A stretch of DNA of 64,000 bases from Candidatus Woesebacteria bacterium (GTDB lineage Bacteria; Patescibacteriota; Microgenomatia; UBA8517). Position 1 is the first letter of the stretch. Every line of letters starts with the position of its first letter. The position numbers and the translations under genes are program-made. The notes beneath the pieces were generated by a model. It saw only the letters and a program-made list of their open reading frames with translations, ran no database searches and was not told the DNA's origin. Shown in pieces: positions 40,344-59,362 of this stretch. The stretch lies in contig CP058602.1 in NCBI GenBank assembly GCA_013426185.1, forward strand, positions 271,123 through 335,122, read 5' to 3'.

Positions 40344-41980
40344 TCAAATACATTAAACGCTCTCTTTCCATTAAGAAAGTCAACCGAATAAAGTAAGCTT
40401 GTTCCTTGAGGGGTTTCATCGGGAGTAGCTATAAACAATATTTTCTTGCCTGCAAATTCTTTTCTGATATCACTAACTTTCGTTCCTTCATCACCAAGAT
40501 CGGGAAAATAAAACTTATCAAACTTAAGAACACGCACCCAGTCGTAAGTTTCAAAACGAATAAGGTTTTTATCATCTTGAAACTTACTTGGAGGATAATT
40601 CAAATAAAACAAAGTAAACATATGAGGTTCCCCATACTCACGAGTAAAAACTATTAGATCATACTTACTATAGTTTTCCTTTATATACTCGACAACCTGT
40701 TTATTGCCATATTGCCAATCGCGAGAGTACAAAACTGGATACTGGTTATAGAAATAGAGTTGGTATCTAATAAATTGATAAAGAAAAATAGTAAAACAAG
40801 TAGTAATTAGTAAGTAGTAAGTAGTAAGGTTAAGAGATTTTAAGTAAGAAAAGGCATAGTAAAAACCAATCGCTGTTAAAATCTGATAAACAGGTGCTGC
40901 ATTTAGCGTTCTTAGAGCATGAGGAATACTGTCACGAGTTAGTGATACTGGAATAAAAGCAGTCAAAAGCCACAAAATTAAAATCCACCTATATCTATTT
41001 TTCTTTCTAAAAAGAAGGTAAAGTCCCAAAATTAAAAACGGAGCTTGAATAAAGTATAACTGACCTATTTTTTGCGGATGGTGCTGCTTATGCCCCGCTC
41101 CTGAGACAAAAAGAAAGTCAGGAGTAAAATGAGCCAAATAATTTTTAGCTACATAAAAACTAACAAAAGTGTATCTATTGTAAATCAACCTTTTAAATAA
41201 AAATGGTAAAGTTGATAAATTTCTTCTTTCCTCAATCCTTGGGATAAGACCCGCTTCATCAGTAACACTCACCAACTTATAACGGGCTCTTCCTTCCCCG
41301 AAGAAAAGAAAATAAAAAATAGGCAAAATCAAAACAGAAAGAAAAAGAATTGGTAAAAAAATCTCTTTGCGCTTTTGCCATACTTTTTTGAAATAAACTA
41401 CAATTAAAAGAAAAATAAATATAGGGATAAAACCGCGAGCTGAATTGTAAGTATACATTGAAAGAGCCAAAAACAAACTAGAAAGAAAGAAAAATTTACT
41501 GTTTTTAATCCCTTTGACTAAAAATAAAATTCCTAAAATAAGCCACATCAAAGCAAAAGATGCTTCAAAAGAAGCTCTTGTTAATTGGATATGCCAGGGA
41601 GAAACTGCCAGGAAAAAGGCTGAAATTAAAGCTATAGTTTTTAATTTAGTAATCTCAAGAGTCAAAAAATACAAAAACAAGATAGTAAGTGTTCCATAAA
41701 TAACTGGGGTAATACGAACAGAAAAGTCATTCAAGCCAAAAATAAAAATTGCAGGAATGGAAAAATAAATTTGTCCAGGGAGCTTATATTCACCATAAGA
41801 TTTGAAATGCAAAGGTAAGAACTGACCCCATTCATCACGACCTGTTTTTAAGATCGAATAAGCATTATACCCAATTGATACCTCGTCCCAATTCAAAGAA
41901 GGAGGAACCTCAAGAACCTTGTAAAATCTAAGAAAAAAGGCCAAGATAATAATAAGAAAAAGTAAGATTTTATTTTTCAT
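40340..41980 (-). CDS. GT-C glycosyltransferase, ArnT/PMT-like paralog
   Basis: 'NWDEVSIGYNAYSILKTGRDEWGQFLPLHFKSYGEYKLPGQIY', near-identical motif to 38781..40343. Confidence 0.65.
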   Translation of the reverse strand: MKNKILLFLIIILAFFLRFYKVLEVPPSLNWDEVSIGYNAYSILKTGRDEWGQFLPLHFKSYGEYKLPGQIYFSIPAIFIFGLNDFSVRITPVIYGTLTILFLYFLTLEITKLKTIALISAFFLAVSPWHIQLTRASFEASFALMWLILGILFLVKGIKNSKFFFLSSLFLALSMYTYNSARGFIPIFIFLLIVVYFKKVWQKRKEIFLPILFLSVLILPIFYFLFFGEGRARYKLVSVTDEAGLIPRIEERRNLSTLPFLFKRLIYNRYTFVSFYVAKNYLAHFTPDFLFVSGAGHKQHHPQKIGQLYFIQAPFLILGLYLLFRKKNRYRWILILWLLTAFIPVSLTRDSIPHALRTLNAAPVYQILTAIGFYYAFSYLKSLNLTTYYLLITTCFTIFLYQFIRYQLYFYNQYPVLYSRDWQYGNKQVVEYIKENYSKYDLIVFTREYGEPHMFTLFYLNYPPSKFQDDKNLIRFETYDWVRVLKFDKFYFPDLGDEGTKVSDIRKEFAGKKILFIATPDETPQGTSLLYSVDFLNGKRAFNVFE

Positions 41981-43637
41981 AATTTCTCTTCTCTCTAATA
42001 TTCTTCCAGATTAAAAAGGAAAATACAAACAAACTAATCAAAGTTGTAAATAAAGATACGTTAATTATTAATGTTCTTTTAAAAACAACTTCTATCTCGC
42101 TTGAAGACCTAGAAACAAAGACCTTCAAAAATGGTTCGCTTTTGATATCTTGCTTCACATAAACACCATCTACTAAGACACTAACAAAAGGATAATTAAA
42201 TTTTGGTAATAATATGCTTTTCTCTTCGTCAAATAAAATTTTATACTTACTAGAATTTATACTTTCTGAGACTAAGCTAATCTGACTTTCGTTAATTATT
42301 TTTTCCTTAAGTTTGGTGTCAATAGAAAATAAACTAGCTCCCTTGGGAAAATACTCGTTATAAGTGCTTGTTGTTGACTCGCTTTCAATAAACGGCCTAA
42401 ATTCATTCTCAGCAAGAAACATATTAGGCCGAATATGGTTTCGGTTTGTATAAAAGGCGACAAAGAGAATTAAAAAAGGAAAAATATAATAAAAAATCTT
42501 GCTTTTTACCTCTTCTGTCAATAAAACAAACAAAAGGCTGGTTAAAAATACATTGGGGTAAATAAAACGAAAAGGAAAGTCAAGACCAGTCTTTGAGATA
42601 AACTTTTCCCAAAACAAAGACGAAGAATAATTAGTAAAAAATATGTTAATTAAGAAAGCAAGAATCAAAAATAAAACCAGGCTATCAAACTTAAACGACC
42701 TGAATAATCCCAAGAGGACAACTGACAGAGAAAACAAAAAAATAAGCCACTGGGCTATTCCAATCTGAAAAGAAAAAGGATTTTCAGAAGCAGATTTAAC
42801 AATTATTCCAAATCCCCATTTGGAATAAATAAGCTGGCTTAAATTAACAAAACCCATTTCAAATATTCTTGGCAAGCCGAGGATATAATTTTTGTAATAA
42901 AAAGCAGGAAACAAGTAGAAAGATGAAATTCCTAGAGAAAGAAATACTGAAAATAATATCGTTTTTAGAAATTTAATCTTAAACTTTGATTTAAAAAGAA
43001 AATATAAAGACAAAAAGAAAAAGGATGGTAAAAAAACAATCAAAGTGGGAAAATGAGAAAGGATAACGCCTGAAAGGCCGGATGTCATCAACAAACCCCC
43101 ATCTAACAGCCTACCTTTTTGAATCCTTAAAAGTCCCAAAGCTATCAATGGAATAAAAATAAAAGTAAAGGAAATACCCACTGCAGCCGAAACAAAAATA
43201 ATTAAAAATCTATAAGGAGCAATAAGGTAAAGAAAACTAGAAACAAGAGATAAATATCTCCTACGAGAAAGCTCAAAAGCTAAAAGGTACATAGTGACAC
43301 CTGATAAGAAAAAGCTTAAGAAAAACAAAATTTTAACAACAGAGACATCACTTAACCCAAAAAACATAAAAATTGAACCAAAGATCCAAGGCAAATGATA
43401 AGAAAACAAAAACAAAGGATAACCAAAACCTGAAGCCGCATCTGAAAGATAATAAGGAGGAAATTGGCCCTCTTTCAAAGCTTGAAAATAATAATTAAGC
43501 CGAGCCAAATTGTGCCAAATATCATGAGCTGTATAAATGCCAGACTGAAAAATATAACGAAGTGTAAATAAAGAGAAAATAAGAATAAACAAAAAAGACA
43601 AAAAGTCTTTCTTCCTTAAAAAATTCAAAAAAAACAT
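41970..43637 (-). CDS. Large polytopic membrane protein of the second paralog family (YfhO-like / uncharacterised GT-C candidate)
   Basis: 'SGFGYPLFLFSYHLPWIFGS' and '...FPFRFIYPN' motifs, shared with 53574..55247, 55216..56883 and the C-terminal domain of 56864..59362. Confidence 0.5.
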   Translation of the reverse strand: MFFLNFLRKKDFLSFLFILIFSLFTLRYIFQSGIYTAHDIWHNLARLNYYFQALKEGQFPPYYLSDAASGFGYPLFLFSYHLPWIFGSIFMFFGLSDVSVVKILFFLSFFLSGVTMYLLAFELSRRRYLSLVSSFLYLIAPYRFLIIFVSAAVGISFTFIFIPLIALGLLRIQKGRLLDGGLLMTSGLSGVILSHFPTLIVFLPSFFFLSLYFLFKSKFKIKFLKTILFSVFLSLGISSFYLFPAFYYKNYILGLPRIFEMGFVNLSQLIYSKWGFGIIVKSASENPFSFQIGIAQWLIFLFSLSVVLLGLFRSFKFDSLVLFLILAFLINIFFTNYSSSLFWEKFISKTGLDFPFRFIYPNVFLTSLLFVLLTEEVKSKIFYYIFPFLILFVAFYTNRNHIRPNMFLAENEFRPFIESESTTSTYNEYFPKGASLFSIDTKLKEKIINESQISLVSESINSSKYKILFDEEKSILLPKFNYPFVSVLVDGVYVKQDIKSEPFLKVFVSRSSSEIEVVFKRTLIINVSLFTTLISLFVFSFLIWKNIREKRNYEK

Positions 43638-43640
43638 AGA

Positions 43641-45143
43641 CTATTGAGCCTTGTTCATTACCAAAAAACGCCAAAAAAATGGTATTCTTAATTCTGATAT
43701 TTTACTTGATTCAACAATCGGACAAGACTTGCTTTGGCAAGCAAGCTCAAAGGAATTGTAAATATACTTGACATTAAAAAATAAACCTAAAATCACGATA
43801 ACCAAAATCATAAGCTGAGTTGTTTTTTGAATAAACTTCTTTCTAAACAAAAGATTTAATATCGGCAAAAAGAAAAAGAAAACAATCCAAAACCTATATT
43901 GGTGTGGCAGAACGTTAGGATGAAAAGGGTTAACCAAAAGCATTCGGTTGCCAAGCAATAACCCAAAAGCTAAAAACATACTAAAGAAATCGGATTTCTT
44001 AAGAATAAGCAACAGACCCCAAGCAATTAGAATAGACAAGAAAGGATAAGAAGGGAAACGATACCAAGCCAATAAATCATTTTCCCCTCCTGAAACCATA
44101 ACCACCAACACCCAAAAGACAAAAGCCATTAAAACGACAAATTTATCGCCTTTTAATCCTTTGAAGAGAAAATAAGCAGAAGAAAGTAAACCAAAAACAA
44201 ACCAGCTATCACGAGTTATTTGTGTATCAAAAGACGGCGTGATAAAAAACCATGCAAGGCTGCCAAAACCAACAGGTCTTGATGACTGTATAGAGTTAAT
44301 TCTCTTAAAGACCTCCCAATCAAGATGATATCCCCACCAAAAATAAAAACCCACAAAAGGTAAAGTCAAAAACAACAAAAGAAAGGAATAAATAAAAGCT
44401 TTTCTATAGGAACTTTTCCTGCAAAGATCCATAAAGACAAAAAATATGGCAAATAAAATGATAAAAAAGCCTGTAGGTTTTGAAAGGCCAGCTACACCGG
44501 CAAGAATAGGCATTAGAATAAGGTACCAAAACGATTGTTTTTTTCTAAAAAGAAGAATTAGATAAACAAGAATAGAAAAACACAAAGTTATTAATGTTTC
44601 AGGCATAGCTGTTCTTGATGCAAAGACAAAGATTGGAACAGTACCATAAATTAGCATTGAAAGCATTCCAACCCAAAAACCAGATATATGAGAAGCTATT
44701 AGAAAAACAAAAATAGAAGTTAAAGCCGATATAAAAATCATAGGATAACGAATAAAAGTAGATGGGACAAAATCACGCTCTTCTACTCCAAATTTATTAG
44801 CAAAAAAACCAACCAGATAAGAGAAAAGAGGTGGTTCATCAAGCCAAGGTTTATAAAGAGTAACCGAAGCCTTAGGATCTCCACCTTTATAATTTATCTC
44901 TCCCCTATACACCTCTCTACTTTTCGGATAATCAAGGGTAGACCAAGAAATAGGAACCCCCGACTTGATTAAACTAACTCCACTTAAAGCGTAAAGTTGT
45001 TCGTCTAGATGCCCTACCCCTGGTGTTTTCTCATAATTATGAGCTCGCAAGATAAATGTAAAAATAAGAACTAGCAAGAAAACAAAGAACTTAAAAAGAA
45101 AAATTTTGAACCTAAAGCCAGACTTTAAAAGATGCTTCATCAA
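43641..45143 (-). CDS. GT-C-type membrane glycosyltransferase candidate (PMT_2-like, divergent)
   Basis: 'VGHLDEQLYALSGVSLIKSGVPISW' DE-loop after the first TM. 500 aa, polytopic. Confidence 0.5.
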   Translation of the reverse strand: MMKHLLKSGFRFKIFLFKFFVFLLVLIFTFILRAHNYEKTPGVGHLDEQLYALSGVSLIKSGVPISWSTLDYPKSREVYRGEINYKGGDPKASVTLYKPWLDEPPLFSYLVGFFANKFGVEERDFVPSTFIRYPMIFISALTSIFVFLIASHISGFWVGMLSMLIYGTVPIFVFASRTAMPETLITLCFSILVYLILLFRKKQSFWYLILMPILAGVAGLSKPTGFFIILFAIFFVFMDLCRKSSYRKAFIYSFLLLFLTLPFVGFYFWWGYHLDWEVFKRINSIQSSRPVGFGSLAWFFITPSFDTQITRDSWFVFGLLSSAYFLFKGLKGDKFVVLMAFVFWVLVVMVSGGENDLLAWYRFPSYPFLSILIAWGLLLILKKSDFFSMFLAFGLLLGNRMLLVNPFHPNVLPHQYRFWIVFFFFLPILNLLFRKKFIQKTTQLMILVIVILGLFFNVKYIYNSFELACQSKSCPIVESSKISELRIPFFWRFLVMNKAQ

Positions 45144-45172: not shown

Positions 45173-46816
45173 TTACCTTTCAGAGCAGGGCTTGTTTGTA
45201 TTGTAACCAAAAAGATAAGCTTCGCCTCTTAGATCTTCAATCTCAAAAACTTTAGTAAGGAAATGAGATTTCATTTGATCCTGAGACACAGAAAATCTAT
45301 CTCCAACTAAAAGCAAGTCTTTACCACAAATCTCACCCCACTCAATAGGCTTAATTATAATATTGTCTATCACAAAAATCTCATAAGGATTAACTTCACC
45401 ACTATAGTAAGGCGTTATCAGTTGCGACTTCAGATTATTCTGCATCAAATATGGGTCAGCGCCCAGAATATAAGCCGACACCGTTCCTATACCCCATGCT
45501 CTGTCTGTCCTATCAATATAGATTTTGTTTTCCCTATACTTATCTATCTGCTTCAAAAGCTTAAGATAAGGGAAACTGCCCTCTGAATTTACTATCCGAT
45601 ATTTAAAAAGCACAAACCTCGAAGTGTACAAAATAAATAAAGAGTAGATAAGCAGTAGGGAAAAAACCAATAAACGAAATAGCCCATTCTTAATAAATTT
45701 AAAAACCATATAGAAACCATAAGAAATAATGTTAGTAATTAACCAAAGAAACACCAACACCCTAATAGGAAAAAAGATATCTCCTGTAAGACCAGCAGGA
45801 ACTGGAGATATTAAAATCAAAAAACTAAAAACTTTTACAATATTCCTATCTATATTATTGATAAAACCTCTCAACCCCAAGACGGCTAAAAACAAAAACA
45901 AAGGATAAAAAACACTCAAATCAGGACCTACTCTACCGAGCTCATTACCTGAATTAAAGAATAAATTTTTGGGAGAAAAATAATCAAGATAATGGCCGGC
46001 AAAATTTTTAAAGGCAAACAATACCTTTCCACTAAAGTCTGAGTTAACAAAAGCGGGATCACTAAAATAACCTACCTGTGCCAATCTTCTTGTCAAAGCG
46101 CCTGTTTTTGCAATATACAAATGAGGCAAGATAAATAAAAGAAAAACAAAGAACCCATAAAGCAAAGCTTTCTTGTTAGCTTTAAAGTAATTTCTAGACA
46201 AAATGATAAAAAAGAAAATGTACAAAAAGGCTGTAACTCTTTCCGTGTAATAAGTATGTGTTGAAAGACCCAAAAACAAACAACCAAGGACAAAAAATAA
46301 AGTTTGTCTTCTACTTTTCTCAAGAGATAAAAGGGTAAAAAACACACCCAACCCAAAAACTAAAACTACCAGATTTCCCTCAGCAGTAAGTCTCCCAAAA
46401 TGAACAGACCATGGAGAAATGGCTACAAACAAAGCAGCGAAAACGCCCTGCAAAATTTTTTCTTCTTTTTTTCCCAAACCGAAAAACTTCCAAAAATAAA
46501 AAGAAAGAATCACTAAAAGAACTCCCGAAAAAGCCGAGACAAACCTAGCAGCGAAAATGGTGTTACCAAATAAAAATACTGGAATAGTAGTTAAATAGGT
46601 ATAAACAGGAGGCTGATATGAACCGTTAGCCCGAAAAAGAATAGGAAAGGTTTGGCCGTACATATCGCGACCTGTTTTAATAAGCGAGTAAGCATTGTAA
46701 GCTATTGAGGATTCATCAGCATGAAAGTGAAAAGAAATATCCCCTAGTTTCCAAAATCGCAGGACGAAAGCCAAAACAAAAATAGCAAAAAGAGATAATT
46801 TTTGCGCTTTACTCAT
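45173..46816 (-). CDS. GT-C glycosyltransferase, ArnT/PMT-like paralog
   Basis: 'HADESSIAYNAYSLIKTGRDMYGQTFPILFRANGSYQPPVYTY'. Confidence 0.65.
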   Translation of the reverse strand: MSKAQKLSLFAIFVLAFVLRFWKLGDISFHFHADESSIAYNAYSLIKTGRDMYGQTFPILFRANGSYQPPVYTYLTTIPVFLFGNTIFAARFVSAFSGVLLVILSFYFWKFFGLGKKEEKILQGVFAALFVAISPWSVHFGRLTAEGNLVVLVFGLGVFFTLLSLEKSRRQTLFFVLGCLFLGLSTHTYYTERVTAFLYIFFFIILSRNYFKANKKALLYGFFVFLLFILPHLYIAKTGALTRRLAQVGYFSDPAFVNSDFSGKVLFAFKNFAGHYLDYFSPKNLFFNSGNELGRVGPDLSVFYPLFLFLAVLGLRGFINNIDRNIVKVFSFLILISPVPAGLTGDIFFPIRVLVFLWLITNIISYGFYMVFKFIKNGLFRLLVFSLLLIYSLFILYTSRFVLFKYRIVNSEGSFPYLKLLKQIDKYRENKIYIDRTDRAWGIGTVSAYILGADPYLMQNNLKSQLITPYYSGEVNPYEIFVIDNIIIKPIEWGEICGKDLLLVGDRFSVSQDQMKSHFLTKVFEIEDLRGEAYLFGYNTNKPCSER

Positions 46817-47310
46817 AATTTCAAAGACTTTCTAATAAATCTAAGAAAGACACAAAATCCTAAAAATATAGAAAAAAAGAATAAGGGCAAGTATAAAAGC
46901 AAAGATCTTTCAGATGGTAACAAGATACTGAAAAACATAGCCAAAACAAGGTATATAAAAAACTCAAATAGAAAGTTTTTAACAAGATAAAAAAGACCAG
47001 CAAATAAAAATGGCAAAACAAAATAAAACAGAAGGTATTTTTCTAGGTAAGGCCTGAAATCCAAAGGATAAGCTGCTTTATTGAGAAATTTGTTAAAAAA
47101 ATAGGCTCTTTTACCCATAAACAGACGCGAAGCCTTGAGATTAAACAAAAAACCAAGTTCGCTATTCAATAAATGGCTATCATTTTCCTGAATTATCTGT
47201 TTATCAAGATCGGGGATAAAAAGGATATTTCTGTCAAAATATTTAAGAGAAAGGTAAATTCCCAAGAAAAATAAAAAAATAATAAGTAAATATGAGATTT
47301 TTTTATTCAT
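46813..47310 (-). CDS. Small membrane protein (165 aa), possible accessory or flippase-like component
   Basis: 2-4 TM helices. Lies between the Dpm1-like GT2 and a GT-C. Not recognisably GtrA. Confidence 0.35.
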   Translation of the reverse strand: MNKKISYLLIIFLFFLGIYLSLKYFDRNILFIPDLDKQIIQENDSHLLNSELGFLFNLKASRLFMGKRAYFFNKFLNKAAYPLDFRPYLEKYLLFYFVLPFLFAGLFYLVKNFLFEFFIYLVLAMFFSILLPSERSLLLYLPLFFFSIFLGFCVFLRFIRKSLKL

Positions 47311-48050
47311 CTAAATCTTCTATCCCTCTTAATGCCAAGACGATGGAGGTAATAAAAAAAGATAGTCAAAAATCCCTCTAAAACAAATTTAGAGCCTTTC
47401 CAAAATCTAATAGAAGAAGCTTTTTCGTGGTATCGAGTTGGAATGGGAATCTCGCCAATTCTAAAACCATAACTTAAAGCTGAGATTGTCATTTCCTGAT
47501 CAAAGACAAAATCATTAGAAAAACGTTGAAAAGGAACTTTCCTTAAAAGCTTGGCGCTATACGCCCTAAAACCTGAAAAATGCTCAGTAAAATTAACTCC
47601 CAAAAGAATATTCTGAATAAAACAAACTATTCTATTGACATAATATTTAAGAGGAGGCATTCCCCCTTCAAGAGCTCCCTTTTTTGTGGCAATACGGCTA
47701 CCAAACATAAAATCATACTTTCCATCAAGAATTGGCTGAACAAGGTAAGGAATCATTGTCGCATCATATTGATAATCAGGATGAAGCATTACAACAACAT
47801 CTGGCTTTAATTTCAGAGCTTCCCAATAACAAGTCTTTTGGTTTCCACCATAACCTAAATTATTAGGGTGAGCAAAAACTTTAATACCAAGTTTTTTTGC
47901 TACTTTTGTCGTATCATCTGAACTATTATCATCAACCAGAATAACATGCTTCCTATACTCAAGAGGAGTCTCGCGATAGGTATCTTCTACAGTTTTTGCC
48001 GCATTGTAAGCGGGCATAACAATAACTACTTTTCCAGTTTTTTTACTCAT
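47307..48050 (-). CDS. Polyprenyl-phosphate sugar synthase-type GT2 (dolichol-phosphate mannosyltransferase / GtrB / ArnC-like)
   Basis: 'VVIVMPAYNAAKTVEDTY...VILVDDNSSDDT...' followed by '...HPDYQYD' and 'FSGFRAY', as in Dpm1-like enzymes. Confidence 0.75.
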   Translation of the reverse strand: MSKKTGKVVIVMPAYNAAKTVEDTYRETPLEYRKHVILVDDNSSDDTTKVAKKLGIKVFAHPNNLGYGGNQKTCYWEALKLKPDVVVMLHPDYQYDATMIPYLVQPILDGKYDFMFGSRIATKKGALEGGMPPLKYYVNRIVCFIQNILLGVNFTEHFSGFRAYSAKLLRKVPFQRFSNDFVFDQEMTISALSYGFRIGEIPIPTRYHEKASSIRFWKGSKFVLEGFLTIFFYYLHRLGIKRDRRFR

Positions 48051-49734: not shown

Positions 49735-51714
49735 ATGTTTCTGGTAAATACACTTTTTTTTCTTTTTATCTCTTTTGTTTTTTTCCTAAACCCGGGGCTT
49801 TTAATCTTAAGACTTTCAAAAGTTAAAAAGATAGGTTTTGAGGAGATATTAATATCATTTGTTTTTGGATTATGCCTTTATAACTTATCTTCCCTATTAT
49901 TCCATAATCTCGGCGTTCCTCATATTTTGCTAGCGTTTGTAATTATCGCCAATATAATTTTATTAAAACAAGGGCCACTTGTAACAAAAATACCCACTGC
50001 CAATAAAAAAACCTATATCTTATTTGCAATCTTAATTCTTGGTATCATAGGTCAACTTCTAGTAATATCTCCAAGCGGTATTAAAAATAAACAAGGAGAT
50101 ATGGTTTTTTACAGTTCAAATGGCCATGATGGAGCCTGGCATATAGCCATAATGAACGAGGTGCAAAAAAAATTCCCGCTTCAAAATCCAAGTTATGCCG
50201 GAGAAAAACTGACTAACTATCATTTCCTTTCAGATATTGCTCCATCTGATATTAACCTTTTTTTCAAACTAAACAAGACCGACCTCTACTTCAGATTTTT
50301 CCCTCTACTTTATTCCATATTGCTTGGTCTTTTAGCTTACTTTTTGGGGAAAATAATATCAAAAAGTGTAAACGGAGGTTTGTGGAGTGTTTTTTTTACC
50401 TATTTTGCGGGAAGCTTTGGCTATATCGTCACTCTAATAAGAGAAGGTAAAATCAGCGGGGAAAGTTTGTTCTGGAGCTCGCAGGTCCAAAGTGTATCAG
50501 GCAATCCACCTCAAGCTTTTGCTCTAACAATCATTCTTGCCATCCTCATCTCCATTCAAAAATATGGAAAGGACAAGAAAATAATTTGGCTATTAATGCT
50601 TACCGCGATGGCAACTTCCCTTTCTCTTATAAAAATATACGCTTTTATAGTTTTGGTGTTATCGCTGGGATTTTTATCTTTATACCAAATAATAAAAAGA
50701 AAAAACTACAAATATTTAATAGCAACAATCATAATAGGTGTTTTATCATTTTCAATCTACTTCTTAAGCACCTCAAATCCAATGGAATCAAAATCCTTTT
50801 TAATCTTTGAGCCATGGTGGTATATCAGAACAATGGTGGTAGAACCAAGTAGATTAAACTTACTTGACTGGGAGTTAAGGAGACAAACCTATTTATATGA
50901 AAGAAACTTCTTAAGAGTAATACAAATTGAATTTCAAAGTTTCATTATCTTCCTTATTGGAAACCTGGGAACAAGAATAATAGCCATTTATTGGCTAATC
51001 AAAGAAAGGAAAAAAATATTTTTAAATCAACTATACATAAACTTAATAATCATAATTCTGATTTCCCTAACATTCCCCCTATTTTTCATTCAAAAGGGAG
51101 TAGCAGGTAATACAATTCAGACTTTTCAATATGTTCTTTTGATAACAGGAATATTAGCAGGTGTTTCAACAGCAAAAATAATGGAAAAAATAAAAACTAA
51201 GATCCTAAAAATCTTCCTCGCTATATTAATTATTGTTGTTTCAATGCCAACTCAAGTTGCACTAATTTATGAATTCTATTCAAAACCACCAATAGCCAAA
51301 ATAAGTATAGGTGAAATAGAAGCTCTAAATTTCTTAAAAGAAAAAACATCAAAAGATTCAATCATCTTAACTCCTCTTTACAACCAATATTCAAAATTCA
51401 AAAACCAAAGTACACCCAAAATCTGGGCATGGTTTGATAGTTCTTATATTGCCGCTTTTTCAGAAAGAAAGACTTTCTTTTCCGACTTTGAACAGATGGA
51501 TATCATGGGTTATGACATAAACAAAAGAAGAAAAATAGTGCAAGAAATTCTTATGAGCCCGAACATAGACTTATTCAAAAATTTATTAATTGAAAACAAA
51601 ATAGATTATCTATATATTCCAAGGGAATTAAAAGACGAAATAAAGCTTTATCCCGAAGTTCTTAAAAAGGTATTTGAAAATAGTGAAGTAGAAATTTGGC
51701 AATTGAGAACCTAA
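49735..51714 (+). CDS. Large polytopic membrane protein (659 aa) with a C-terminal soluble domain
   Basis: Divergent from the minus-strand operon, separated by a 26-bp spacer containing TATAATATAAT. Confidence 0.45.
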   Translation: MFLVNTLFFLFISFVFFLNPGLLILRLSKVKKIGFEEILISFVFGLCLYNLSSLLFHNLGVPHILLAFVIIANIILLKQGPLVTKIPTANKKTYILFAILILGIIGQLLVISPSGIKNKQGDMVFYSSNGHDGAWHIAIMNEVQKKFPLQNPSYAGEKLTNYHFLSDIAPSDINLFFKLNKTDLYFRFFPLLYSILLGLLAYFLGKIISKSVNGGLWSVFFTYFAGSFGYIVTLIREGKISGESLFWSSQVQSVSGNPPQAFALTIILAILISIQKYGKDKKIIWLLMLTAMATSLSLIKIYAFIVLVLSLGFLSLYQIIKRKNYKYLIATIIIGVLSFSIYFLSTSNPMESKSFLIFEPWWYIRTMVVEPSRLNLLDWELRRQTYLYERNFLRVIQIEFQSFIIFLIGNLGTRIIAIYWLIKERKKIFLNQLYINLIIIILISLTFPLFFIQKGVAGNTIQTFQYVLLITGILAGVSTAKIMEKIKTKILKIFLAILIIVVSMPTQVALIYEFYSKPPIAKISIGEIEALNFLKEKTSKDSIILTPLYNQYSKFKNQSTPKIWAWFDSSYIAAFSERKTFFSDFEQMDIMGYDINKRRKIVQEILMSPNIDLFKNLLIENKIDYLYIPRELKDEIKLYPEVLKKVFENSEVEIWQLRT

Positions 51715-51716: not shown

Positions 51717-52394
51717 CTACCTTTCCCTTCTTAAAAAATAAATAATTAAAGATGTTAACAAAAATAAAGTAGCAACAAAAAAGTAGAAAAAGGATGAATC
51801 TTGATAAAAACGACTAAACCAAGAGTTATAGATATCAATAACCAAAGAAAGCCGACTTTTGGGAGCAAAATAAAGTAAAAAGGAGATTGGTTTTTCAACC
51901 GGCATATCATTAATATAAAGACTACCCGCAAAATCTTGGGGCTCATTAGTCGTATAGACTTCATAAGCTTTTTCTTTACCAACCTCAAGAGTAGAAAGCT
52001 TAAATACATAACTAACTGAACGGGAATTGGGTATTTTGTCAAAAGTAAATATTACAATATCACCATCTTTAATCGAGCTGCCAGAAACTACAGATCTTCT
52101 TATTAGACCCCCTCTTGAATAAACTTCAAGAATAACATCCCCTTTACTTTGCAAATTAAAATTCCTGATACTAACACCAATGGCAGTCAGGTTATCTTGA
52201 GGTGAGATAAACTCTTGAGAAAGACTTTGTTCGTTAAACAATTTTTCACTACCAAAAAGTGGGGGTTGAAAAGAATAAGGAATATACCTCAAGCCCAAAC
52301 TCATAAATATGGGCGAGACAAAAACTAAAACCAAAAAAAAGCTTAATAAAAATAATAAAATCTTTACTTCTTTATGTAATTTATATTTTTCCAT
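51717..52394 (-). CDS. Single-pass membrane-anchored protein (225 aa)
   Basis: N-terminal TM helix then a soluble domain, plus a C-terminal TM helix. Confidence 0.35.
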   Translation of the reverse strand: MEKYKLHKEVKILLFLLSFFLVLVFVSPIFMSLGLRYIPYSFQPPLFGSEKLFNEQSLSQEFISPQDNLTAIGVSIRNFNLQSKGDVILEVYSRGGLIRRSVVSGSSIKDGDIVIFTFDKIPNSRSVSYVFKLSTLEVGKEKAYEVYTTNEPQDFAGSLYINDMPVEKPISFLLYFAPKSRLSLVIDIYNSWFSRFYQDSSFFYFFVATLFLLTSLIIYFLRRER

Positions 52395-53581
52395 AATAAG
52401 AATAAGGCCAAAGAACTAGAAGCTGTCTGTAACAAAGATTGCAAATAATATGAATTGTAAACCTTCTGGACAATAACAAAAGGATAAGGGATAAGACTAA
52501 AATACCTTGAAAAAAGTGAAAATAAAGATACTGTCATTTGTTTATCATCATAAAGAAACGGCAAGAAAAACATAACCAAAAACCATAAAACAGCAATAAA
52601 ATAATTTTCCTTATATTTAACTAAAAACAAAATAAGAAGCGGCAAAATCCAAACCAACCATTGTATATGGAAATGTATAAAACTTAAGACAACTACTAGT
52701 AATAGAAAAAAATAAAGTTCGATGCGCTTATCTAGGCGTGAAAGAAGATAAACAATAAAAATAATCAAAAATGGAATTATAATCCTCACACCAAAACCTA
52801 AATCAATAGAAGGAGCAAAAATTCTATTCATCAATCCTGAAGAAATAGCCCCACTAATAAAAGATTTCGAGAAAAACGGATAAGATAAAGACAGAAATGT
52901 TGCCAGAACAACTAAAAACATTTTAAGGAAATCGCCAAACTTATTTACTTTAAGGAAAATGATAGGTAATAAAAGCAGAGGATAAGCCTTAAAAAGAGAA
53001 CCCAAAACCAAGAAAAAACTTGATAAAACCAGCCTATCCTTCTTTGCCAAATACAAAGATAAAAGAACCAAGAAAGAAACAATAATATCAAAACCAGAAT
53101 AAGCATAAATAATAAAAATAGAAAATGGATTTAGAAGCCAAAGCGTAAACACTCTTGATTTCCTCTTCTTGTCATCAAAAAATGAAGCAAGGAGAAAAGC
53201 TGTCAGAACATCAAAAAATAAAAGTGGCAACTTAAGCAAAAAAATAAAGCGAAAAATTCTAAAATTTTCAACAGACTGCTGACTTGCATCCCAAAGCCAT
53301 TCTTTAAAACCGCTCCCCAATAGAGGTTTGATTAATACTTGATATGACCCCCAAAAAAGATAAGCGAGAGGTTGGTATACAAATTCCTCTCTAAAAGGCA
53401 GTTCTTGCTTTCTTTCATTTAAAAAGTCATAGATATTCAAAACTCCACTACTCAAAAAAGAGGATTGGAAATTGTATATTTTTATATCGGGGTGATACAA
53501 AAAGGGCATGATCAAAAGCCTCACCAATAAAGCAAAAACAAAAAGATACCGAGGAATGGGAATTTGGAAAAAGTCACGCAT
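52364..53581 (-). CDS. Polytopic membrane protein (GT-C candidate)
   Basis: 405 aa, at least 10 TM helices. Confidence 0.45.
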   Translation of the reverse strand: MRDFFQIPIPRYLFVFALLVRLLIMPFLYHPDIKIYNFQSSFLSSGVLNIYDFLNERKQELPFREEFVYQPLAYLFWGSYQVLIKPLLGSGFKEWLWDASQQSVENFRIFRFIFLLKLPLLFFDVLTAFLLASFFDDKKRKSRVFTLWLLNPFSIFIIYAYSGFDIIVSFLVLLSLYLAKKDRLVLSSFFLVLGSLFKAYPLLLLPIIFLKVNKFGDFLKMFLVVLATFLSLSYPFFSKSFISGAISSGLMNRIFAPSIDLGFGVRIIIPFLIIFIVYLLSRLDKRIELYFFLLLVVVLSFIHFHIQWLVWILPLLILFLVKYKENYFIAVLWFLVMFFLPFLYDDKQMTVSLFSLFSRYFSLIPYPFVIVQKVYNSYYLQSLLQTASSSLALFLLWKNINYIKK

Positions 53582-55247
53582 ATTTTTTCTTATTTAAAAA
53601 TAGATACAAACATAATAAAAACGACAAAAATGAAACCAAATCTAACAATTTATTCCTTAAAGTCTCATTATAAAAAACCTCAAGATCGTGCTCACCTTTT
53701 GCAACCGAGACTACAATCTGACCAAAAGGCTTGCCTGAGTCAATAGTAACCTCTTCCCCATCCAATTTTACCACCCAACCAGGAAAATAGTATCTTCTGA
53801 TATTGACATCTGTTTTGTCTTCAAAAACTTCTATCTTGGCTTTAAAATCAAGACTGTTATTTTCCTTAAAATCCTTAACTATAAAATTAGAACCAAATAG
53901 AATCGGCATCACCCTATCTGGCCTTAATTCTGTTAAAACAGGCAATCTTAGGTATTCTTCAGAGGTTTTTTTGTACTCCTCACTTGCCTCAGGAAGAGGT
54001 ATATAACGATTAAGATAATAGCCATCCTGTCTATTCAAATATTCACTTGGCTTAAAATAAGAGAAACCAAAATATAAAGATAGACAAATTAAAGAAAATA
54101 TCACAAGCTCCCTTATCTTTAACTTTTCAAAAGTTATGACAAAAATGGCAGAAGTAAAAATTACCAAAGTCAAAAACCGCCAAGGAAATTGGAAATAAGG
54201 TAAAAAGGGAAAATTCTGCCAAATAAAGCTTGATCTATGGTTAGTCATAAAAATAGAAGCAAAAAATACAATAAAAGACCAAATTAAGACTGAAGACTTG
54301 TCAAGAGAAAACTTCTTAAAATTACGAAAAAGCAAAAATATCGAAAGCACTAAAACTACAATCTGTGGCAGACCGATAAAAAATGACATACCATCATAAG
54401 GTCCGGGAACCGAGGCGCCATAACCAAAATAAGGAGTAATAAGCTGCTTAAAAGTGGGAAAGTGATCAGAATAATTAAATACTGTGTCGTACTTCATTAA
54501 TCTGATGTCAAGAATTGCTGGCACCCAAAAATAAGAAGAGGCAAGAAAACCCAATAGAAAAGTAAGCAAAAAGGGCTTAACGATCAGACGACCATGCTTT
54601 AGAAAAAGACCAAAAAAGACAAGAGACGACAAAGGTAAAAACATATAAGAGGTTATGTTGTGAGACAAAACTAAACAAAAAATAGACAAAGAAGCAATAG
54701 CAACCCATCGCCAATTAATTTTCTTTTTGTCTTCATCCAAAAGGGAGAAAAAAGAAAGTAAAACCAAAGGTAAAAAGACAAAAGCCAAAGATTCCCCGAT
54801 TGCTCCCCTTACATAGACATCTGTCGCTCGATATGGAGCATAAAGATAAATAGTTGCACCAAGAAGACTAAGATACTTGTCGGTAAACTTTTTTAGAAGT
54901 AAGTACATAGAAAAAAACGACAAAAATAAGCTTAAAGCAAGTACTATTTTTACGCTATTAACTAAGCTAAAACCTAAAAGATGAAAAACTTCACCCAGGT
55001 AAAATGGCAAGGGAAAAACAAAATTAAAAAGAGGGTAGCCAAAACCATAACTTAAGCTGGGAGTATATCTTGGGGGGAACTTGCCAGACCTAATTGCCTG
55101 GTCCATTTCATAAAGCCAAGCAATATGCATATCATCAGACACACCAAAATATCCTGGTTTTAAAAACAAAGCAAGAATAGAGGGCAAAGGAATCAAAAAA
55201 AGAACAAGCCAAAAATTATGATCTAAAAAATTTAAAAGCTTTTTCAT
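53574..55247 (-). CDS. YfhO-like / second-family GT-C membrane protein
   Basis: 'SYGFGYPLFNFVFPLPFYLGE' and 'QFPWRFLTLVIF'. Confidence 0.5.
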   Translation of the reverse strand: MKKLLNFLDHNFWLVLFLIPLPSILALFLKPGYFGVSDDMHIAWLYEMDQAIRSGKFPPRYTPSLSYGFGYPLFNFVFPLPFYLGEVFHLLGFSLVNSVKIVLALSLFLSFFSMYLLLKKFTDKYLSLLGATIYLYAPYRATDVYVRGAIGESLAFVFLPLVLLSFFSLLDEDKKKINWRWVAIASLSIFCLVLSHNITSYMFLPLSSLVFFGLFLKHGRLIVKPFLLTFLLGFLASSYFWVPAILDIRLMKYDTVFNYSDHFPTFKQLITPYFGYGASVPGPYDGMSFFIGLPQIVVLVLSIFLLFRNFKKFSLDKSSVLIWSFIVFFASIFMTNHRSSFIWQNFPFLPYFQFPWRFLTLVIFTSAIFVITFEKLKIRELVIFSLICLSLYFGFSYFKPSEYLNRQDGYYLNRYIPLPEASEEYKKTSEEYLRLPVLTELRPDRVMPILFGSNFIVKDFKENNSLDFKAKIEVFEDKTDVNIRRYYFPGWVVKLDGEEVTIDSGKPFGQIVVSVAKGEHDLEVFYNETLRNKLLDLVSFLSFLLCLYLFLNKKKYA

Positions 55248-56883
55248 ATTTTATGAAAACAACCAACAAAAACAAACTTAAAAGTGAAATCCAATTAGAA
55301 ATTCTTCTAACTCGCGTGTCTACTAGCTTACCTTCAACCATATATTCACCTCTTGGCAAACTCACTACTACAAGACCTTTATCGCTTGTTTCATAATTCA
55401 AAAACTTATTACCTGATTTTACCTCCCAAACAGGAAAATTAAACACCGGCACTTCTACTTTCCCTTCCCTTTCCGCCTTAACCAAAAAACTCCAACTATC
55501 AGTCTTTCGATTAAAATTTGAAACAACAATACTGTCATCCACGCTAGATACCTGAAGAGGAGCTGGAGAATCTGGAACAAGAGCGCCAACAGGCAAATAG
55601 TCATTAATTGACCCTTTTTGCATTATTCTCAAGCTTTCGCCGCTCAACATCTCTTTGTCACTTGTTTTGAAAAATCTCTCGGGTCTAAAGTACCTATAAT
55701 TCAAGAAGATAGTCAGAAGAACCATAAAAATAAAAAACCACCTGAAGTTCTTCACACCCAAACCAGCAAGGCGCGATATAAAAAAACCTCCAATAATTGA
55801 TGAGGAAAAAATTGATAATGATAAAAATCTCCAAGGAAACTGAGTAAAACTTAAAATAGGAATTCTTTCCCAGATAAAAGCCGACTTATTGTGAATCATA
55901 AAAATTGAAAAGACAAAAACAAAAAACATAAAGAGAGAAAGCAAAAGACCTAAATCAAATTTCTTTTTCTTGACGATATAGAAAATTATGAATGGCAGAG
56001 ATAAAAATACAATGAACCAATGCGGCCAACCAATTTGAAAAGAGATAGTATCCTCCTTTTGAGGATTTGAAGCGCTATAATGCCAACTTCTATCCCAAAA
56101 AAGCTGACTAACTTTCACAAAATGAGCTCTAAAATTAAGTTCATCTTTGGTCATAGATTCTATCTGAACTAAATTTTTCTCAAAAAAGGCTGGCAAGAGA
56201 AAAAAACTTGAAACACCAAGGCTAATAAAAAGAGAGACTAACAAAATCTTTAGACCGAGTCCTTTTTTATAAAGATACACCAAGATCATCCAAATGATAA
56301 TTAACGGAGAAAAAAGCATCACCATAACATTGTGTGACAAAAAGAAAGAAGTTAAAGATATCACCAAACCCAAAAAATACTTTTTTTCTTTCTTTTGGGA
56401 CAATTTATAAACAAAATAAAAAATAAAAGGGACAAGAGAAATAGCAAAGATTTCAGCCAAAGCCCCCCTAACATAAACATCAAGAGCCCGATATGGAGCA
56501 TAGGTAAAAAGCACAGACGAGAAAATTGCTGCCCAAACTCCAAAAAATTCTTTTGTTAAAAGATACATCCCCAAAAAAGAAAGGATAAAGGTTAACAAAA
56601 AAAGAATTTTTACTGAAGTAATATAGCCAAAAACAAAACTCAAAAGCCCACCTAAATAATAGGCAAAAGGAGCATAATAATTAAAAAGAGGAAAACCATA
56701 GCCATAGCCCATATCAGGCACCCAACGGCAAGGAATCTGGAGATCAAGAAGACATTTTTTCATTTCGTAAACTCTAATCACCTGTAAATTATCATGATGA
56801 GTAAAGAAACCGGGAACAAAAAGAGGCCAAATTACAAAGATTAAGATCAAAAACAAAAGAAAGCTAAGAAGTTTTTTGCTCAT
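55216..56883 (-). CDS. YfhO-like / second-family GT-C membrane protein
   Basis: 'CRWVPDMGYGYGFPLFNYYAPFAYYLGG' and 'QFPWRFLSLSIF'. Confidence 0.5.
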   Translation of the reverse strand: MSKKLLSFLLFLILIFVIWPLFVPGFFTHHDNLQVIRVYEMKKCLLDLQIPCRWVPDMGYGYGFPLFNYYAPFAYYLGGLLSFVFGYITSVKILFLLTFILSFLGMYLLTKEFFGVWAAIFSSVLFTYAPYRALDVYVRGALAEIFAISLVPFIFYFVYKLSQKKEKKYFLGLVISLTSFFLSHNVMVMLFSPLIIIWMILVYLYKKGLGLKILLVSLFISLGVSSFFLLPAFFEKNLVQIESMTKDELNFRAHFVKVSQLFWDRSWHYSASNPQKEDTISFQIGWPHWFIVFLSLPFIIFYIVKKKKFDLGLLLSLFMFFVFVFSIFMIHNKSAFIWERIPILSFTQFPWRFLSLSIFSSSIIGGFFISRLAGLGVKNFRWFFIFMVLLTIFLNYRYFRPERFFKTSDKEMLSGESLRIMQKGSINDYLPVGALVPDSPAPLQVSSVDDSIVVSNFNRKTDSWSFLVKAEREGKVEVPVFNFPVWEVKSGNKFLNYETSDKGLVVVSLPRGEYMVEGKLVDTRVRRISNWISLLSLFLLVVFIKYEKAFKFFRS

Positions 56884-59362
56884 ATTTTCCTTTGACTAAC
56901 AAGAATATTATTGCACAAAAAGAAACCAAAGAGATAATATTTGCAATTTTTCTAACTGGCGTGTCTTTCAATCTAATTTCAACATTATATCTACCATAAT
57001 CAAGGTCAAAAGTTACAAGGCCAAGACAATATTTCTGCGAAGAGCAGTCGTTATTAAAATGAGGAATTGTCTTTCCGTTTGCCAAAACCACCATTCCAGG
57101 AAAATCAAAAATAGGAGCGCGAATGCGAGCCTTATCACTTAAAACTATAACTTCCCCAATTTGATAATCACTTCCTTTGTTGTATGACAAAATTTTAGCA
57201 TCACCAAAAATAATTTCGGGAGATTCAGGCGCCTTTGACCACGGAGGTAAAGTAGCATAAATTGGCAGATAATCAAAGATACTAATAGTTAATTGCCTTT
57301 CCCAAAGCTCGCCCGAAAACTTCTTTGAATCATCAATATCAAAATACCAATCACGAGGTTTAAAATAATTTATATTCAAAAAAATTGCCAGAACAGAAAT
57401 CAAAATACCTAAAAATAATCTACTTTTCCTCCTAAAAAGTGTTAGGCCGATACCTGTAACAAAAGCAGAAAGGAAAAGAGCTACTGTCATAAAGCGCCAA
57501 GGAAACTGAAACAAGGCTAAAAATGGCAAATTCTCCCAGATAAAAATTGATCTTGGGTGGATAATAAACAAAGAAAAAAGAATTAACAAAAAGCCTATAA
57601 AAATCATCAAATCATAATTAGATTGTTTTTTGGTCTTCAAAATAAATTTACGAAAAGAAAATATCAAAAAGAAAATAAGAGGGAAAAACCACTGCACAAA
57701 ACCTAAAGATAAATTAAGTTTCTCGTCCTTGAAGCCTGAGGAACCATAACCCCACTCCCTATCAAAAAGCAACTTATAAATACCCAAAAAATGCTTCCTG
57801 TAATCAAAATAACCCATTGTCATTGTTTCAATATGAGCATATTGCCTTTCAAAAGCGACAGGTAAAACAAAGAAAGCAGAAAGAGCAAATGCAAAAATTC
57901 CTGAAAGTAAAACTCGAAAAAGGCTCGAAACCTTTTTTTCGTGAAGAGCCCAAAACAAAACCCAAACCAAGAAAGGAACAAAAAAGGATATTGTCATTAA
58001 GATGTGAGTAGTAAAAAGCGAGGCCAAAAATAAAGACAACAGAACAAAATAAATACTCTTGCCTTTCTTAATCAAAAGATAAGAAGACCAAAAAATAAGA
58101 GGAAAAAAGACAAAAGCCCAAAACTCGCTCAAGGCTCCCCTTACATAGACCTCAACTGCTTTATAAGGAGCGTAAGTATAAACAAGACTAGCCACCAAAG
58201 CAGGTAAATTACCCGTAAACAACCTTAACAAAATAAACATTGATAAAGCAGATAGAAGATAACCCAAGACAAAAAGTATCTTAACAGTGTCAACAAATTC
58301 AAAACCTAAAAGATGAATTAATTCGCCCAAATAATAGACAAAAGGAGGGTAATAATTAAATTGAGGATAGCCATATCCGTAACCAGCATCAGGAACCCAA
58401 CGACAAGGAATCTGTAAGTCCTTAAAGCATTTATCCATTTGCTGGACCCGGAAAGCTTGAAGATCATCCTGCATATAAAAAAACCCTCTTCTTAACAAAG
58501 GAGAAATCGTAGGCAAAACAAGTAGTAATAAAAGAATAACACTTAAAATAGTGCCCCTTTTATTTCTAAAAAGATTGGAAAATCTGATTATAGAATTAAT
58601 AAGGTAATGATTAACTGTGCCATAATAGATCTTGCTTGAAGGAATTAATCTCTTCCACTGATCTTTATCGGAAGCTAAATTCTTTCCGCTTTGCCCATGA
58701 AGATGAATTATTTCAGAATCTGGAAGATAGTAGACTTTCAAACCTTTTTTGTTAACTCGCCTGCAATAATCAAGGTCCTCAAAATACATAAAATAACGCT
58801 CATCAAACAGGCCGACCTTTTTAAGAGCAATAGGGGTAATCAGAAAAGCAGCACCTACTGCTGATTCTACAACTGTTGGTTTTTTGCCCGTAGGATAAAA
58901 TTTATCAAGTAATCCCTTTTGACCTAAGAAATATTGCTTGAACGCTCTTGAGACAGAAGGCAGATTAAAACAGGATGGTTGTATTGAATTATCCGCATTA
59001 AGAAGACGAGGGGCAATAACACCAGCGTCTTTTGTCCTTCTAGCAAAGTCGATAAGTTTTTTTATCGCGCCTTTTTTAACTGTTGTATCTGAATTTAAAA
59101 GTAAAATATATTCACCCCTTGAAAGCTTTATTCCCTGATTTACTGCTTTTGCAAAACCAAGATTTTCTTTATTTCTTACCAAGACCAAATTTTTCCACTT
59201 TAATTCATTAAACTTATCAAACGATCCATCTGTTGAAGCGTTATCAATCAGAATTATTTCATAAGGAGGAATACTTTTGTCTTTGGCAATAGAAGACAGG
59301 CAGTCAATTGTCAAATCAGAAGTATTGTAATTTACAATAATTATTGAAATTGCCTTTTTCAC
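56864..59362 (-). CDS. Fusion protein: N-terminal GT2 (WbbL/rhamnosyltransferase-like GT-A) + C-terminal second-family GT-C membrane domain
   Basis: Residues 1-~250 read 'IIIVNYNTSDLTIDCLSSI...IILIDNASTDGS...FEDLDYCRR'. The remainder is homologous to 55216..56883 ('CRWVPDAGYGYGYPQFNYYPPFVYYLGE', 'QFPWRFMTVALF'). Confidence 0.6.
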   Translation of the reverse strand: MKKAISIIIVNYNTSDLTIDCLSSIAKDKSIPPYEIILIDNASTDGSFDKFNELKWKNLVLVRNKENLGFAKAVNQGIKLSRGEYILLLNSDTTVKKGAIKKLIDFARRTKDAGVIAPRLLNADNSIQPSCFNLPSVSRAFKQYFLGQKGLLDKFYPTGKKPTVVESAVGAAFLITPIALKKVGLFDERYFMYFEDLDYCRRVNKKGLKVYYLPDSEIIHLHGQSGKNLASDKDQWKRLIPSSKIYYGTVNHYLINSIIRFSNLFRNKRGTILSVILLLLLVLPTISPLLRRGFFYMQDDLQAFRVQQMDKCFKDLQIPCRWVPDAGYGYGYPQFNYYPPFVYYLGELIHLLGFEFVDTVKILFVLGYLLSALSMFILLRLFTGNLPALVASLVYTYAPYKAVEVYVRGALSEFWAFVFFPLIFWSSYLLIKKGKSIYFVLLSLFLASLFTTHILMTISFFVPFLVWVLFWALHEKKVSSLFRVLLSGIFAFALSAFFVLPVAFERQYAHIETMTMGYFDYRKHFLGIYKLLFDREWGYGSSGFKDEKLNLSLGFVQWFFPLIFFLIFSFRKFILKTKKQSNYDLMIFIGFLLILFSLFIIHPRSIFIWENLPFLALFQFPWRFMTVALFLSAFVTGIGLTLFRRKSRLFLGILISVLAIFLNINYFKPRDWYFDIDDSKKFSGELWERQLTISIFDYLPIYATLPPWSKAPESPEIIFGDAKILSYNKGSDYQIGEVIVLSDKARIRAPIFDFPGMVVLANGKTIPHFNNDCSSQKYCLGLVTFDLDYGRYNVEIRLKDTPVRKIANIISLVSFCAIIFLLVKGKYEQKTS

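Follow-up and report, generated by a model that had tools for sequence, protein, structure and literature searches.

The window analysed here, a 64,000-nucleotide (nt) stretch of contig CP058602.1 from a Candidatus Woesebacteria bacterium, carries four genes for related membrane proteins, designated M1 to M4 (Table 1). In M1 the membrane domain, which makes up the C-terminal ~565 amino acids (aa), is preceded in the same open reading frame (ORF) by a family 2 glycosyltransferase (GT) domain of the GT-A fold, termed GT2f; M2, M3 and M4 consist of the membrane domain alone. The M1 gene starts with a GTG codon that overlaps the upstream stop codon as GTGA. The analysis supported the assignment of M1 to M4 to an uncharacterised, PF10131/YfhO-like branch of the GT-C glycosyltransferases, a superfamily to which the proteins conformed in every testable feature.

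The 51 ORFs of the window were compared all-vs-all by BLASTP. M2, M3, M4 and the membrane part of M1 were found to be full-length paralogs (about 23-39% identity, E values of 1e-22 to 3e-103), which confirmed, far beyond chance, the four-member family proposed in the sequence-only reading. M2 was 37.8% identical to M1 over 556 aa (E 3e-103), M3 was 30.1% identical to M2 (E 8e-59) and 29.8% identical to M1 (E 4e-57), and M4 was 27-29% identical to M2 and to M3 over the full length (E 2e-36) and 24.3% identical to M1 (E 1e-22). The family is distinct from the PMT_2/ArnT-like proteins of the window, as had also been suggested, because only one marginal local match joins the two sets (the gene at 38781 against M4 at 41970; E 2e-4 over 156 aa). 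Both motifs used in that reading to define the family, RWVPD-GYGYG-FNYY and QFPWRF, were seen. The first was present as CRWVPDxGYGYGxPxFNYYxPFxYYLG in M1 and M2 and in degenerate forms in M3 and M4; the second was found in three of the four paralogs, M4 having DFPFRF instead.

Profile searches of the membrane domain identified PF10131 (PTPS_related), which is listed as 'function unknown' in the GT-C clan CL0111 (PMC7801869). M1, M2 and M3 scored 42.1, 49.2 and 29.3 bits, respectively, all above the gathering cutoff of 26.4 bits (E 5.5e-11 for M1). No NCBIfam model matched the membrane domain, and the M proteins contain no PTPS domain. When 51 close homologs were searched against Pfam (E≤0.1), PF10131 was matched by 50, PMT_2 by 29 and YfhO (PF09586) by 15, the best YfhO match having an E value of 1.8e-11; the STT3 family was matched by none. 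Since the homologs cross-match these families, the M lineage sits between the PF10131, PMT_2 and YfhO families of GT-C enzymes. None of the four window proteins reached PF09586 at E≤0.01, and by this measure they are relatives rather than members of the YfhO family. The earlier guess that the family is YfhO-like therefore fits, through the homologs and a shared domain layout described below, as does the suspicion that it is poorly characterised. It is also large: a profile of the lineage retrieved 17,597 representative clusters when the threshold was E≤1e-3, and 5,905 remained at E≤1e-30.

AlphaFold2 gave confident models of both the M1 fusion (predicted local distance difference test score of 92.8, predicted TM-score (pTM) of 0.88) and the membrane-only protein M2 (84.2 and 0.89, respectively). 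A second, membrane-only model was needed because the 50 Foldseek matches listed for the full fusion model were solely to GT-A proteins. With the M2 model, the leading matches in the PDB were almost all GT-C enzymes, none of them close; the top 28 comprised STT3, AglB, ArnT, ALG12, Pmt4, DPY19, PglB, AftA, AftD and Emb. In three-dimensional similarity the membrane domain was thus placed in the GT-C fold superfamily. That it might instead be a transporter or a scaffold with no enzymatic role is very improbable. A few major facilitator superfamily transporters did appear low in the Foldseek list, at probabilities of 0.2 or less, but all of the high-probability structural matches were to GT-C enzymes, all Pfam matches were to families of the GT-C clan, and an aspartate in the first loop is invariant, with further polar residues conserved, across paralogs that share only 23-39% identity.

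The anatomy of the membrane domain was derived from hydropathy and from DSSP analysis of the AlphaFold2 models, and conservation was read from M1 to M4 together with 91 homolog sequences (residue numbers are those of M1). There are approximately 13 core transmembrane (TM) helices and one terminal TM helix; the N-termini are lysine-rich and the C-termini basic, in agreement with the 8-13 TM helices and cytoplasmic N-terminus of GT-C enzymes. Residue D299, on a helix in loop 1, is invariant both in M1 to M4 and in the 91 sequences; the local sequence is QDD in M1, HDN in M2, SDD in M3 and HDI in M4. An acidic motif in the first extracytoplasmic loop, defined as being of the DxD/DDx/DEx type (PMC5836110), is a mark of GT-C enzymes, and it is present here. 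The GYGYPxFNYY segment follows the helix with the loop-1 aspartate, and some 12 further helices come after it. All four paralogs have in common the loop-1 aspartate, K361, APY (398-400), H453, FPxRF (620-624) and a [DE]Y..P motif, which in M4 reads EY.P; S605 and W609 are also among the invariant core residues of the lineage.

Beyond the core, a [DE]-Y-x(0-2)-P motif, in which P700 is invariant in the 91 sequences, is followed by a beta-sandwich. This domain, ~100-135 aa long, separates the last core helix from the terminal TM helix, as in YfhO, a protein with 13 TM helices and a 389-aa extracellular domain between the last two of them (PMC5836110). One pair of cysteines, C312/C320, is near-invariant in loop 1, and a second pair, C773/C779, is at least 90% conserved in the beta-sandwich across the 91 sequences. 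These pairs would be consistent with an extracytoplasmic position of both regions.

The position of the [DE]Y..P motif bears on what the M proteins transfer. Oligosaccharyltransferases (OSTs) carry a WWDYG motif at roughly the same place, after TM13. The M-protein motif begins ~30 residues past the last core helix, STT3 and AglB were the best Foldseek matches, and a Wzx-type flippase is conserved in the neighbourhood, all of which could suggest OST-, ligase- or polymerase-like enzymes that move a preassembled glycan en bloc from polyprenyl-diphosphate to protein, wall polymer or a growing chain. However, Foldseek does not discriminate between GT-C subfamilies (ArnT, Pmt4, ALG12 and AftD scored similarly), WWDYG is absent from the M proteins, only [DE]Y..P or DYLP being found at the comparable position, and there was the lack of STT3 matches among the 51 homologs. 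The nearest sequence families, YfhO and PMT_2, are monosaccharide transferases, and three to four conserved, non-redundant tandem paralogs fit stepwise transferases better. En bloc transfer is consequently regarded as quite improbable.

At the N-terminus of the M1 ORF (832 aa), a stretch of ~266 aa matched PF00535 with 87.7 bits (cutoff 23.3; E 1e-24) and PF13641 with an E value of 4e-16. The DxD-like and acid/base motifs expected of a GT2 enzyme of the GT-A fold are intact, with NSDT at aa 90-93 and FEDLD at aa 194-198. The best NCBIfam model was the WbbL-type rhamnosyltransferase TIGR01556 (66.7 bits, E 1.8e-18; cutoff 200.55), followed by MftF, EpsD, PgaC and GlfT1, which bears out the earlier description of a soluble, WbbL-like domain, albeit at a score far below the cutoff. 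The best Foldseek matches (E ~1e-10) were ppGalNAc-T2, TarP and WrtF, an O-polysaccharide fucosyltransferase (PMC12595478). Two helices with the conserved sequence QWxRLIPSSKxYHG, at which free-standing orthologs of the domain end, connect it to the membrane core. They run into TM1 without a linker, an arrangement topologically consistent with a cytoplasmic location of the GT2 domain, and would lie at the membrane interface.

Operon pairs of a GT-A and a GT-C gene (ykcC-ykcB, csbB-yfhO, ykoT-ykoS) are a known paradigm (PMC5836110). By analogy, M1 could be a covalent csbB-yfhO pair, in which the fused GT2, as a polyprenyl-phosphate-sugar synthase of the GtrB/CsbB/DPM1 type, supplies donor to its own GT-C domain. 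In every context examined, a GT-C gene directly follows the ortholog of GT2f, be it M1 or, in loci L006 and L007, a PMT_2-type gene, and in the model the two conserved helices between GT2 and TM1 could bind lipid phosphate. DPM1-type synthases that have no TM helix are known to need a membrane tether. The profiles, however, favoured glycan-extending GT2 enzymes (TIGR01556, E 2e-18) over ArnC (17.8 bits, cutoff 529; E ~1e-3), AglJ (19.1 bits, cutoff 325; E 7e-4) and PpgS, whose model gave no match to the fused GT2. Neither DPMS nor GtrB was among the 50 structural matches listed for the fusion model. A different GT2 of the same island (47307..48050) strongly matches AglJ, PpgS and DPM, and by BLASTP GT2f is nearer to the other soluble GT2 proteins of the cluster than to this DPM-like one. 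Furthermore, M1 often occurs without an adjoining GT2f, with clean absences in loci L003, L004, L014, L018 and L052, and adjacency is weak evidence in an island so dense in GT-C genes. Coupling of this kind is unlikely on balance, yet it deserves to be kept in view.

The fusion itself could in principle have been created by a frameshift or a lost stop codon that joined two genes during sequencing or assembly. The junction region is T-rich, related genomes have adjacent, separate GT2 and M1 genes (L013 and others), and a 1-nt indel occurs at this position in L005. However, the 832-aa ORF was intact in contig DYEL01000004.1 (GCA_020725745.1), which is independent and shares 97.4% DNA identity over 17.1 kb of the window. 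An 832-aa ortholog with 61% identity was found in the same gene order on the complete Woesebacteria chromosome CP055308.1 (L008), and at least 65 clusters of full-length homologs of the fusion (49-61% identity, 97-100% query coverage) were recovered from NCBI, JGI, ENA and Logan. AlphaFold2 also modelled the whole chain at high pTM. It is the reverse case that seems artefactual: L005, the closest metagenomic relative, was rejected as a split version since its break is the 1-nt indel, which lies in a poly-T tract inside TM1. These results showed that the GT2-GT-C fusion is genuine; the chance of an artefact is negligible, and this explanation and that of a non-enzymatic membrane domain are effectively refuted. 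The indel in L005 (3480-3650) probably arose from a sequencing error in the homopolymer or marks a recent pseudogene.

The sequence-only reading had also asked if GT2 and membrane domains occur elsewhere as separate genes, and they do. With the GT2 domain alone as the query, more than 100 free-standing proteins of 262-302 aa were found (54-74% identity). In a survey of 79 species-representative loci, GT2f was fused to M1 in six loci, with two further, divergent fusions, was encoded separately and immediately upstream of M1 in eight (L013 and seven others), and was absent between the conserved upstream gene GT2u and M1 in three; in the rest M1 was preceded by other genes. In L013 the GT2 ends with KWKKLSS and the M1 protein starts with MEKAQQLIKK, the two genes overlapping by 22 nt. 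In L003 and L004, where M1 stands alone, the free GT2 gene before it was rejected as a split partner: its product is the ortholog of GT2u (54-59% identity) and shares just 26-30% identity with the fused GT2. The separate genes reflect real evolutionary fusion and fission rather than an error in the window, and the interspersion of fused and unfused membrane domains in a neighbour-joining tree suggests that both events took place repeatedly. Other in-frame fusions were seen, namely GT2 with two M domains (P0018, 1387 aa) and M2 with M3 (1093-1094 aa; P0241, of 1093 aa, and L020), and proteins of 1670 and 3329 aa (the latter P0253) each contained four matched M-family stretches. Single ORFs with several modules were thus noted in P0018, P0241, P0245, P0253, P0286 and L020, P0245 and P0253 being from high-GC, evidently non-candidate phyla radiation (CPR) organisms.

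In ~45 of the 79 loci, which come from Woesebacteria, Daviesbacteria, Shapirobacteria, Amesbacteria and other Microgenomates, 1:1 orthologs of M1, M2 and M3 stand in tandem with their order conserved. In most loci the M2 ortholog follows M1 and the M3 ortholog (42-57% identity) takes the third position. Orthologs of M4 (57-59% identity) occur in genomes that also carry the fusion, for example as gene 435 of KatS3mg088, where the fusion is gene 423. To call this an expanded family, as the sequence-only reading did, is therefore misleading: M1 to M3 are an ancient tandem trio, and M4 also has syntenic orthologs. An ancient expansion in which each copy is conserved implies distinct roles. The genes of the M region overlap by 4 nt (GT2u/M1), 20 nt (M1/M2), 32 nt (M2/M3) and 8 nt (M3/GT87-like gene), junctions that indicate one operon with translational coupling. 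Downstream of the trio there is usually the GT87-like gene, with a gene for a small protein of two TM helices and a PMT_2 gene; upstream of it there are often PMT and Wzx genes and a gene for a ~575-aa multi-TM protein homologous to the one encoded at 49735-51714.

Taken together, the reading that we favour, with a probability of roughly 0.6, is that M1 to M4 are GT-C transferases that add single sugars on the outside of the membrane from polyprenyl-phosphate-sugars, and that the fused GT2 is a cytoplasmic enzyme of the same pathway. Several observations weigh against it. The PF10131 alignments cover only the N-terminal part of the profile (positions 1 to ~300 of 621), and M4 gave no Pfam match even at E≤5, its place in the family being based on BLASTP paralogy (E 2e-36); M4 also does not have the conserved R408 of the M1 core. 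Similarity to solved GT-C structures was moderate (best E 9e-4, TM-scores of 0.35-0.46), and no PDB chain was related to the membrane domain by sequence at E≤10, either with a single query or with a profile of the 51 sequences. No characterised member of PF10131 was found in the literature, nor was any paper that characterises the Microgenomates cluster, PTPS-related membrane proteins or a single-chain GT-A/GT-C fusion of this type. All GT2 assignments were far below the NCBIfam cutoffs, so that the acceptor of the GT2 might yet be a polyprenyl phosphate, and the tree of fused and unfused forms carries no support values.

Under the favoured reading, we infer the donor type, the catalytic residues, the order of steps and the acceptor as follows. 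The cytoplasmic enzymes GT4, GT2u and GT2f would extend a lipid-linked glycan using nucleotide sugars, and the Wzx-type flippase would export it. On the outside, M1 to M3 and the other GT-C enzymes would add sugars from polyprenyl-phosphate-sugars made by the DPM-like GT2, with M1, M2 and M3 performing three distinct steps as a conserved, translationally coupled trio. The acceptor, a glycan or glycoconjugate, would be located on the outer side of the membrane. The loop-1 aspartate, D299, may be catalytic or metal-binding; K361, APY, H453 and FPxRF (R623) may form the site that holds the lipid-phosphate donor, and DYLP together with the beta-sandwich may engage the acceptor. GT2f would be the last gene of a GT4-GT2-GT2 precursor block that became fused to its downstream neighbour, and the fusion would tether GT2f to the membrane and perhaps to an assembly complex.

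A bolder proposal is that the four modules GT2f, M1, M2 and M3 are physically coupled in a membrane-spanning assembly line for glycans that is specific to Microgenomates. The recurrent fusions (GT2 with M1, M2 with M3 and GT2 with two M domains) would then reflect an obligate complex. This proposal is doubtful at present. Were it true, the assembly line would connect a Leloir reaction in the cytoplasm with a succession of GT-C reactions outside the membrane, the lineage with DYLP and the beta-sandwich would stand as a new functional class among GT-C enzymes, and the resulting surface glycoconjugate might serve envelope integrity or the host attachment of ultra-small episymbiotic bacteria.

The closest characterised relatives of the system are the YfhO-type GT-C enzymes (PF09586) and their GT-A partners. 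YfhO of B. subtilis acts in the GlcNAc modification of lipoteichoic acid and Lmo1079 of L. monocytogenes in that of wall teichoic acid, with the GT-A partner CsbB and a flippase. The M proteins resemble them in belonging to the same Pfam clan, in the acidic motif of the first outside loop, in the GT-A gene immediately upstream and in having a multi-TM core and, between the last two TM helices, a domain outside the membrane (PMC5836110). In contrast to YfhO, the M proteins are of ~555 aa with an outside domain of ~135 aa rather than 389 aa, form a tandem trio in Microgenomates with no teichoic-acid context, and have a neighbouring or fused GT2 that looks glycan-extending rather than being of the CsbB/GtrB type. 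By the model cutoffs, neither the M proteins nor the fused GT2 are members of the YfhO, STT3, TIGR01556 or polyprenyl-phosphate GT2 families. They also differ from the PF10131 model, which does not cover the C-terminal half (DYLP, beta-sandwich and terminal TM helix).

The PMT_2/ArnT/PMT enzymes (GT39/GT83) share with the M proteins the fold class, weak PMT_2 cross-matches, the same island and presumed lipid-phosphate-sugar donors, whereas the loop-1 and FPWRF motifs and the C-terminal domain of the M proteins are different. With its GT2/GT4 block, Wzx flippase, DPM-like synthase and numerous GT-C, GT87-like and PIG-V-like proteins, the gene content of the island mirrors the stepwise lipid-linked assembly of the eukaryotic ALG pathway and of mycobacterial arabinogalactan and lipoarabinomannan (WbbL, GlfT, AftA-D, Emb, GT87), in which cytoplasmic Leloir enzymes, a flippase and then several GT-C enzymes act in turn. 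That likeness is one of gene content; the window belongs to a Patescibacterium of ~0.8-1 Mb, and in it a cytoplasmic and an extracytoplasmic enzyme are joined in one polypeptide.

The general logic of GT-A plus GT-C enzymes and of lipid-linked assembly is already established. GT-C enzymes are nevertheless hard to recognise, and few of their families have an assigned function. For PF10131 there are now a confident model, candidate catalytic residues, a three-gene module with 1:1 orthologs and fusions to a specific GT2. The finding is solid and offers a tractable way into a large GT-C family and into the synthesis of CPR surface glycans; provided that physical coupling of the steps does result from the fusion, it would give a compact model for the coordination of cytoplasmic and extracytoplasmic glycosylation. 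Microgenomates genomes are only ~0.8-1 Mb, yet at least 64 kb is given here to one island with ~18 GT-C genes, so its product probably plays a central part in the biology of these uncultivated organisms.

Table 1. Features of the M1 fusion, its paralogs and neighbouring genes (window positions in nt; aa numbering of M1).
Feature	Position	Strand	Description
M1, fusion	56864..59362	minus	832 aa; cytoplasmic GT2 (GT-A) domain and PF10131/YfhO-like GT-C membrane domain; single ORF
M1, GT2 catalytic domain	58673..59362	minus	aa 1-~230; Pfam, NCBIfam, Foldseek
M1, two helices linking GT2 to TM1	58565..58669	minus	aa 232-247 and 249-266; DSSP of model
M1, GT-C transmembrane core	57353..58564	minus	aa 267-~670; fold assigned from the model of the paralog M2
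M1, TM1	aa 268-290	minus	
M1, loop 1 D299/D300	58463-58468	minus	
M1, FPWRF	57491-57505	minus	aa 620-624
M1, extracytoplasmic region after last core TM helix	56963..57274	minus	DYLP aa 697-700; beta-sandwich aa ~716-798 (DSSP of model)
M1, C-terminal TM anchor and basic tail	56870..56959	minus	aa 802-831
M2, standalone paralog	55216..56883	minus	555 aa; PF10131 E 3.9e-13
M3, standalone paralog	53574..55247	minus	557 aa; PF10131 E 4.1e-7
M4, divergent paralog	41970..43637	minus	555 aa; embedded among PMT_2-type genes
GT2u, free GT2	59359..60261	minus	300 aa; always upstream; part of GT4-GT2u-GT2f block; Pfam
GT4 glycosyltransferase	60268..61329	minus	conserved position in cytoplasmic block; Pfam
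Weak GT87-like membrane protein	52364..53581	minus	405 aa, 8 TM helices; PF09594 E 1.3e-3, below cutoff; follows M3 in many loci
Two-TM protein matching no family	51717-52394	minus	225 aa; conservedly follows the M trio in many genomes
Soluble DPM/AglJ/PpgS-like GT2	47307..48050	minus	candidate polyprenyl-phosphate-sugar (donor) synthase
Wzx-type flippase	8589-9869		conserved neighbour
GDP-mannose 4,6-dehydratase	28854-29864		
PIG-V-like protein	30407-31606		
DUF6056 protein	12292-13617		

The whole window is one glycosylation island, encoded almost entirely on the minus strand, with at least 13 PMT/PMT_2-type GT-C genes, the four M genes, many GT2, GT4 and GT8 genes and methyltransferase genes. 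The DPM-like GT2 scored 76.1 bits with the NCBIfam model for AglJ (E 3e-21), 63.7 bits with that for PpgS (E 1.6e-17) and 51.5 bits with that for a dolichyl-P-hexose transferase (E 6e-14), every score being under the equivalog cutoff, and has no TM segment. Downstream of it, at 46813-47310 on the minus strand, lies a gene for a 165-aa protein with four to five TM helices and no family match. As a GtrA-type flippase this protein had no Pfam support even at E≤5; the two genes are a candidate polyprenyl-phosphate-sugar synthase/flippase pair that would serve the GT-C enzymes.

The only plus-strand gene of the region (49735-51714) encodes a 659-aa protein with ~11 TM helices that matched neither Pfam nor NCBIfam, even at E≤5. 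Its homologs (30-36% identity) adjoin M1 in most of the 79 loci, so it counts as a conserved part of the module that has no family assignment. It was considered as a further member of the M family and rejected, the hhalign probability being 2%. Elsewhere in the island, a minus-strand gene at 8049-8441 encodes a 130-aa '23S rRNA intervening sequence protein' (PF05635, E 4e-37; also bAvd-like). Among loci L010 to L079, many third-party annotation records of metagenome-assembled genomes were titled 'uncultured Gammaproteobacteria bacterium', and one 'Pseudomonadales', despite carrying Microgenomates clusters; these taxonomic labels look like placeholders or errors.

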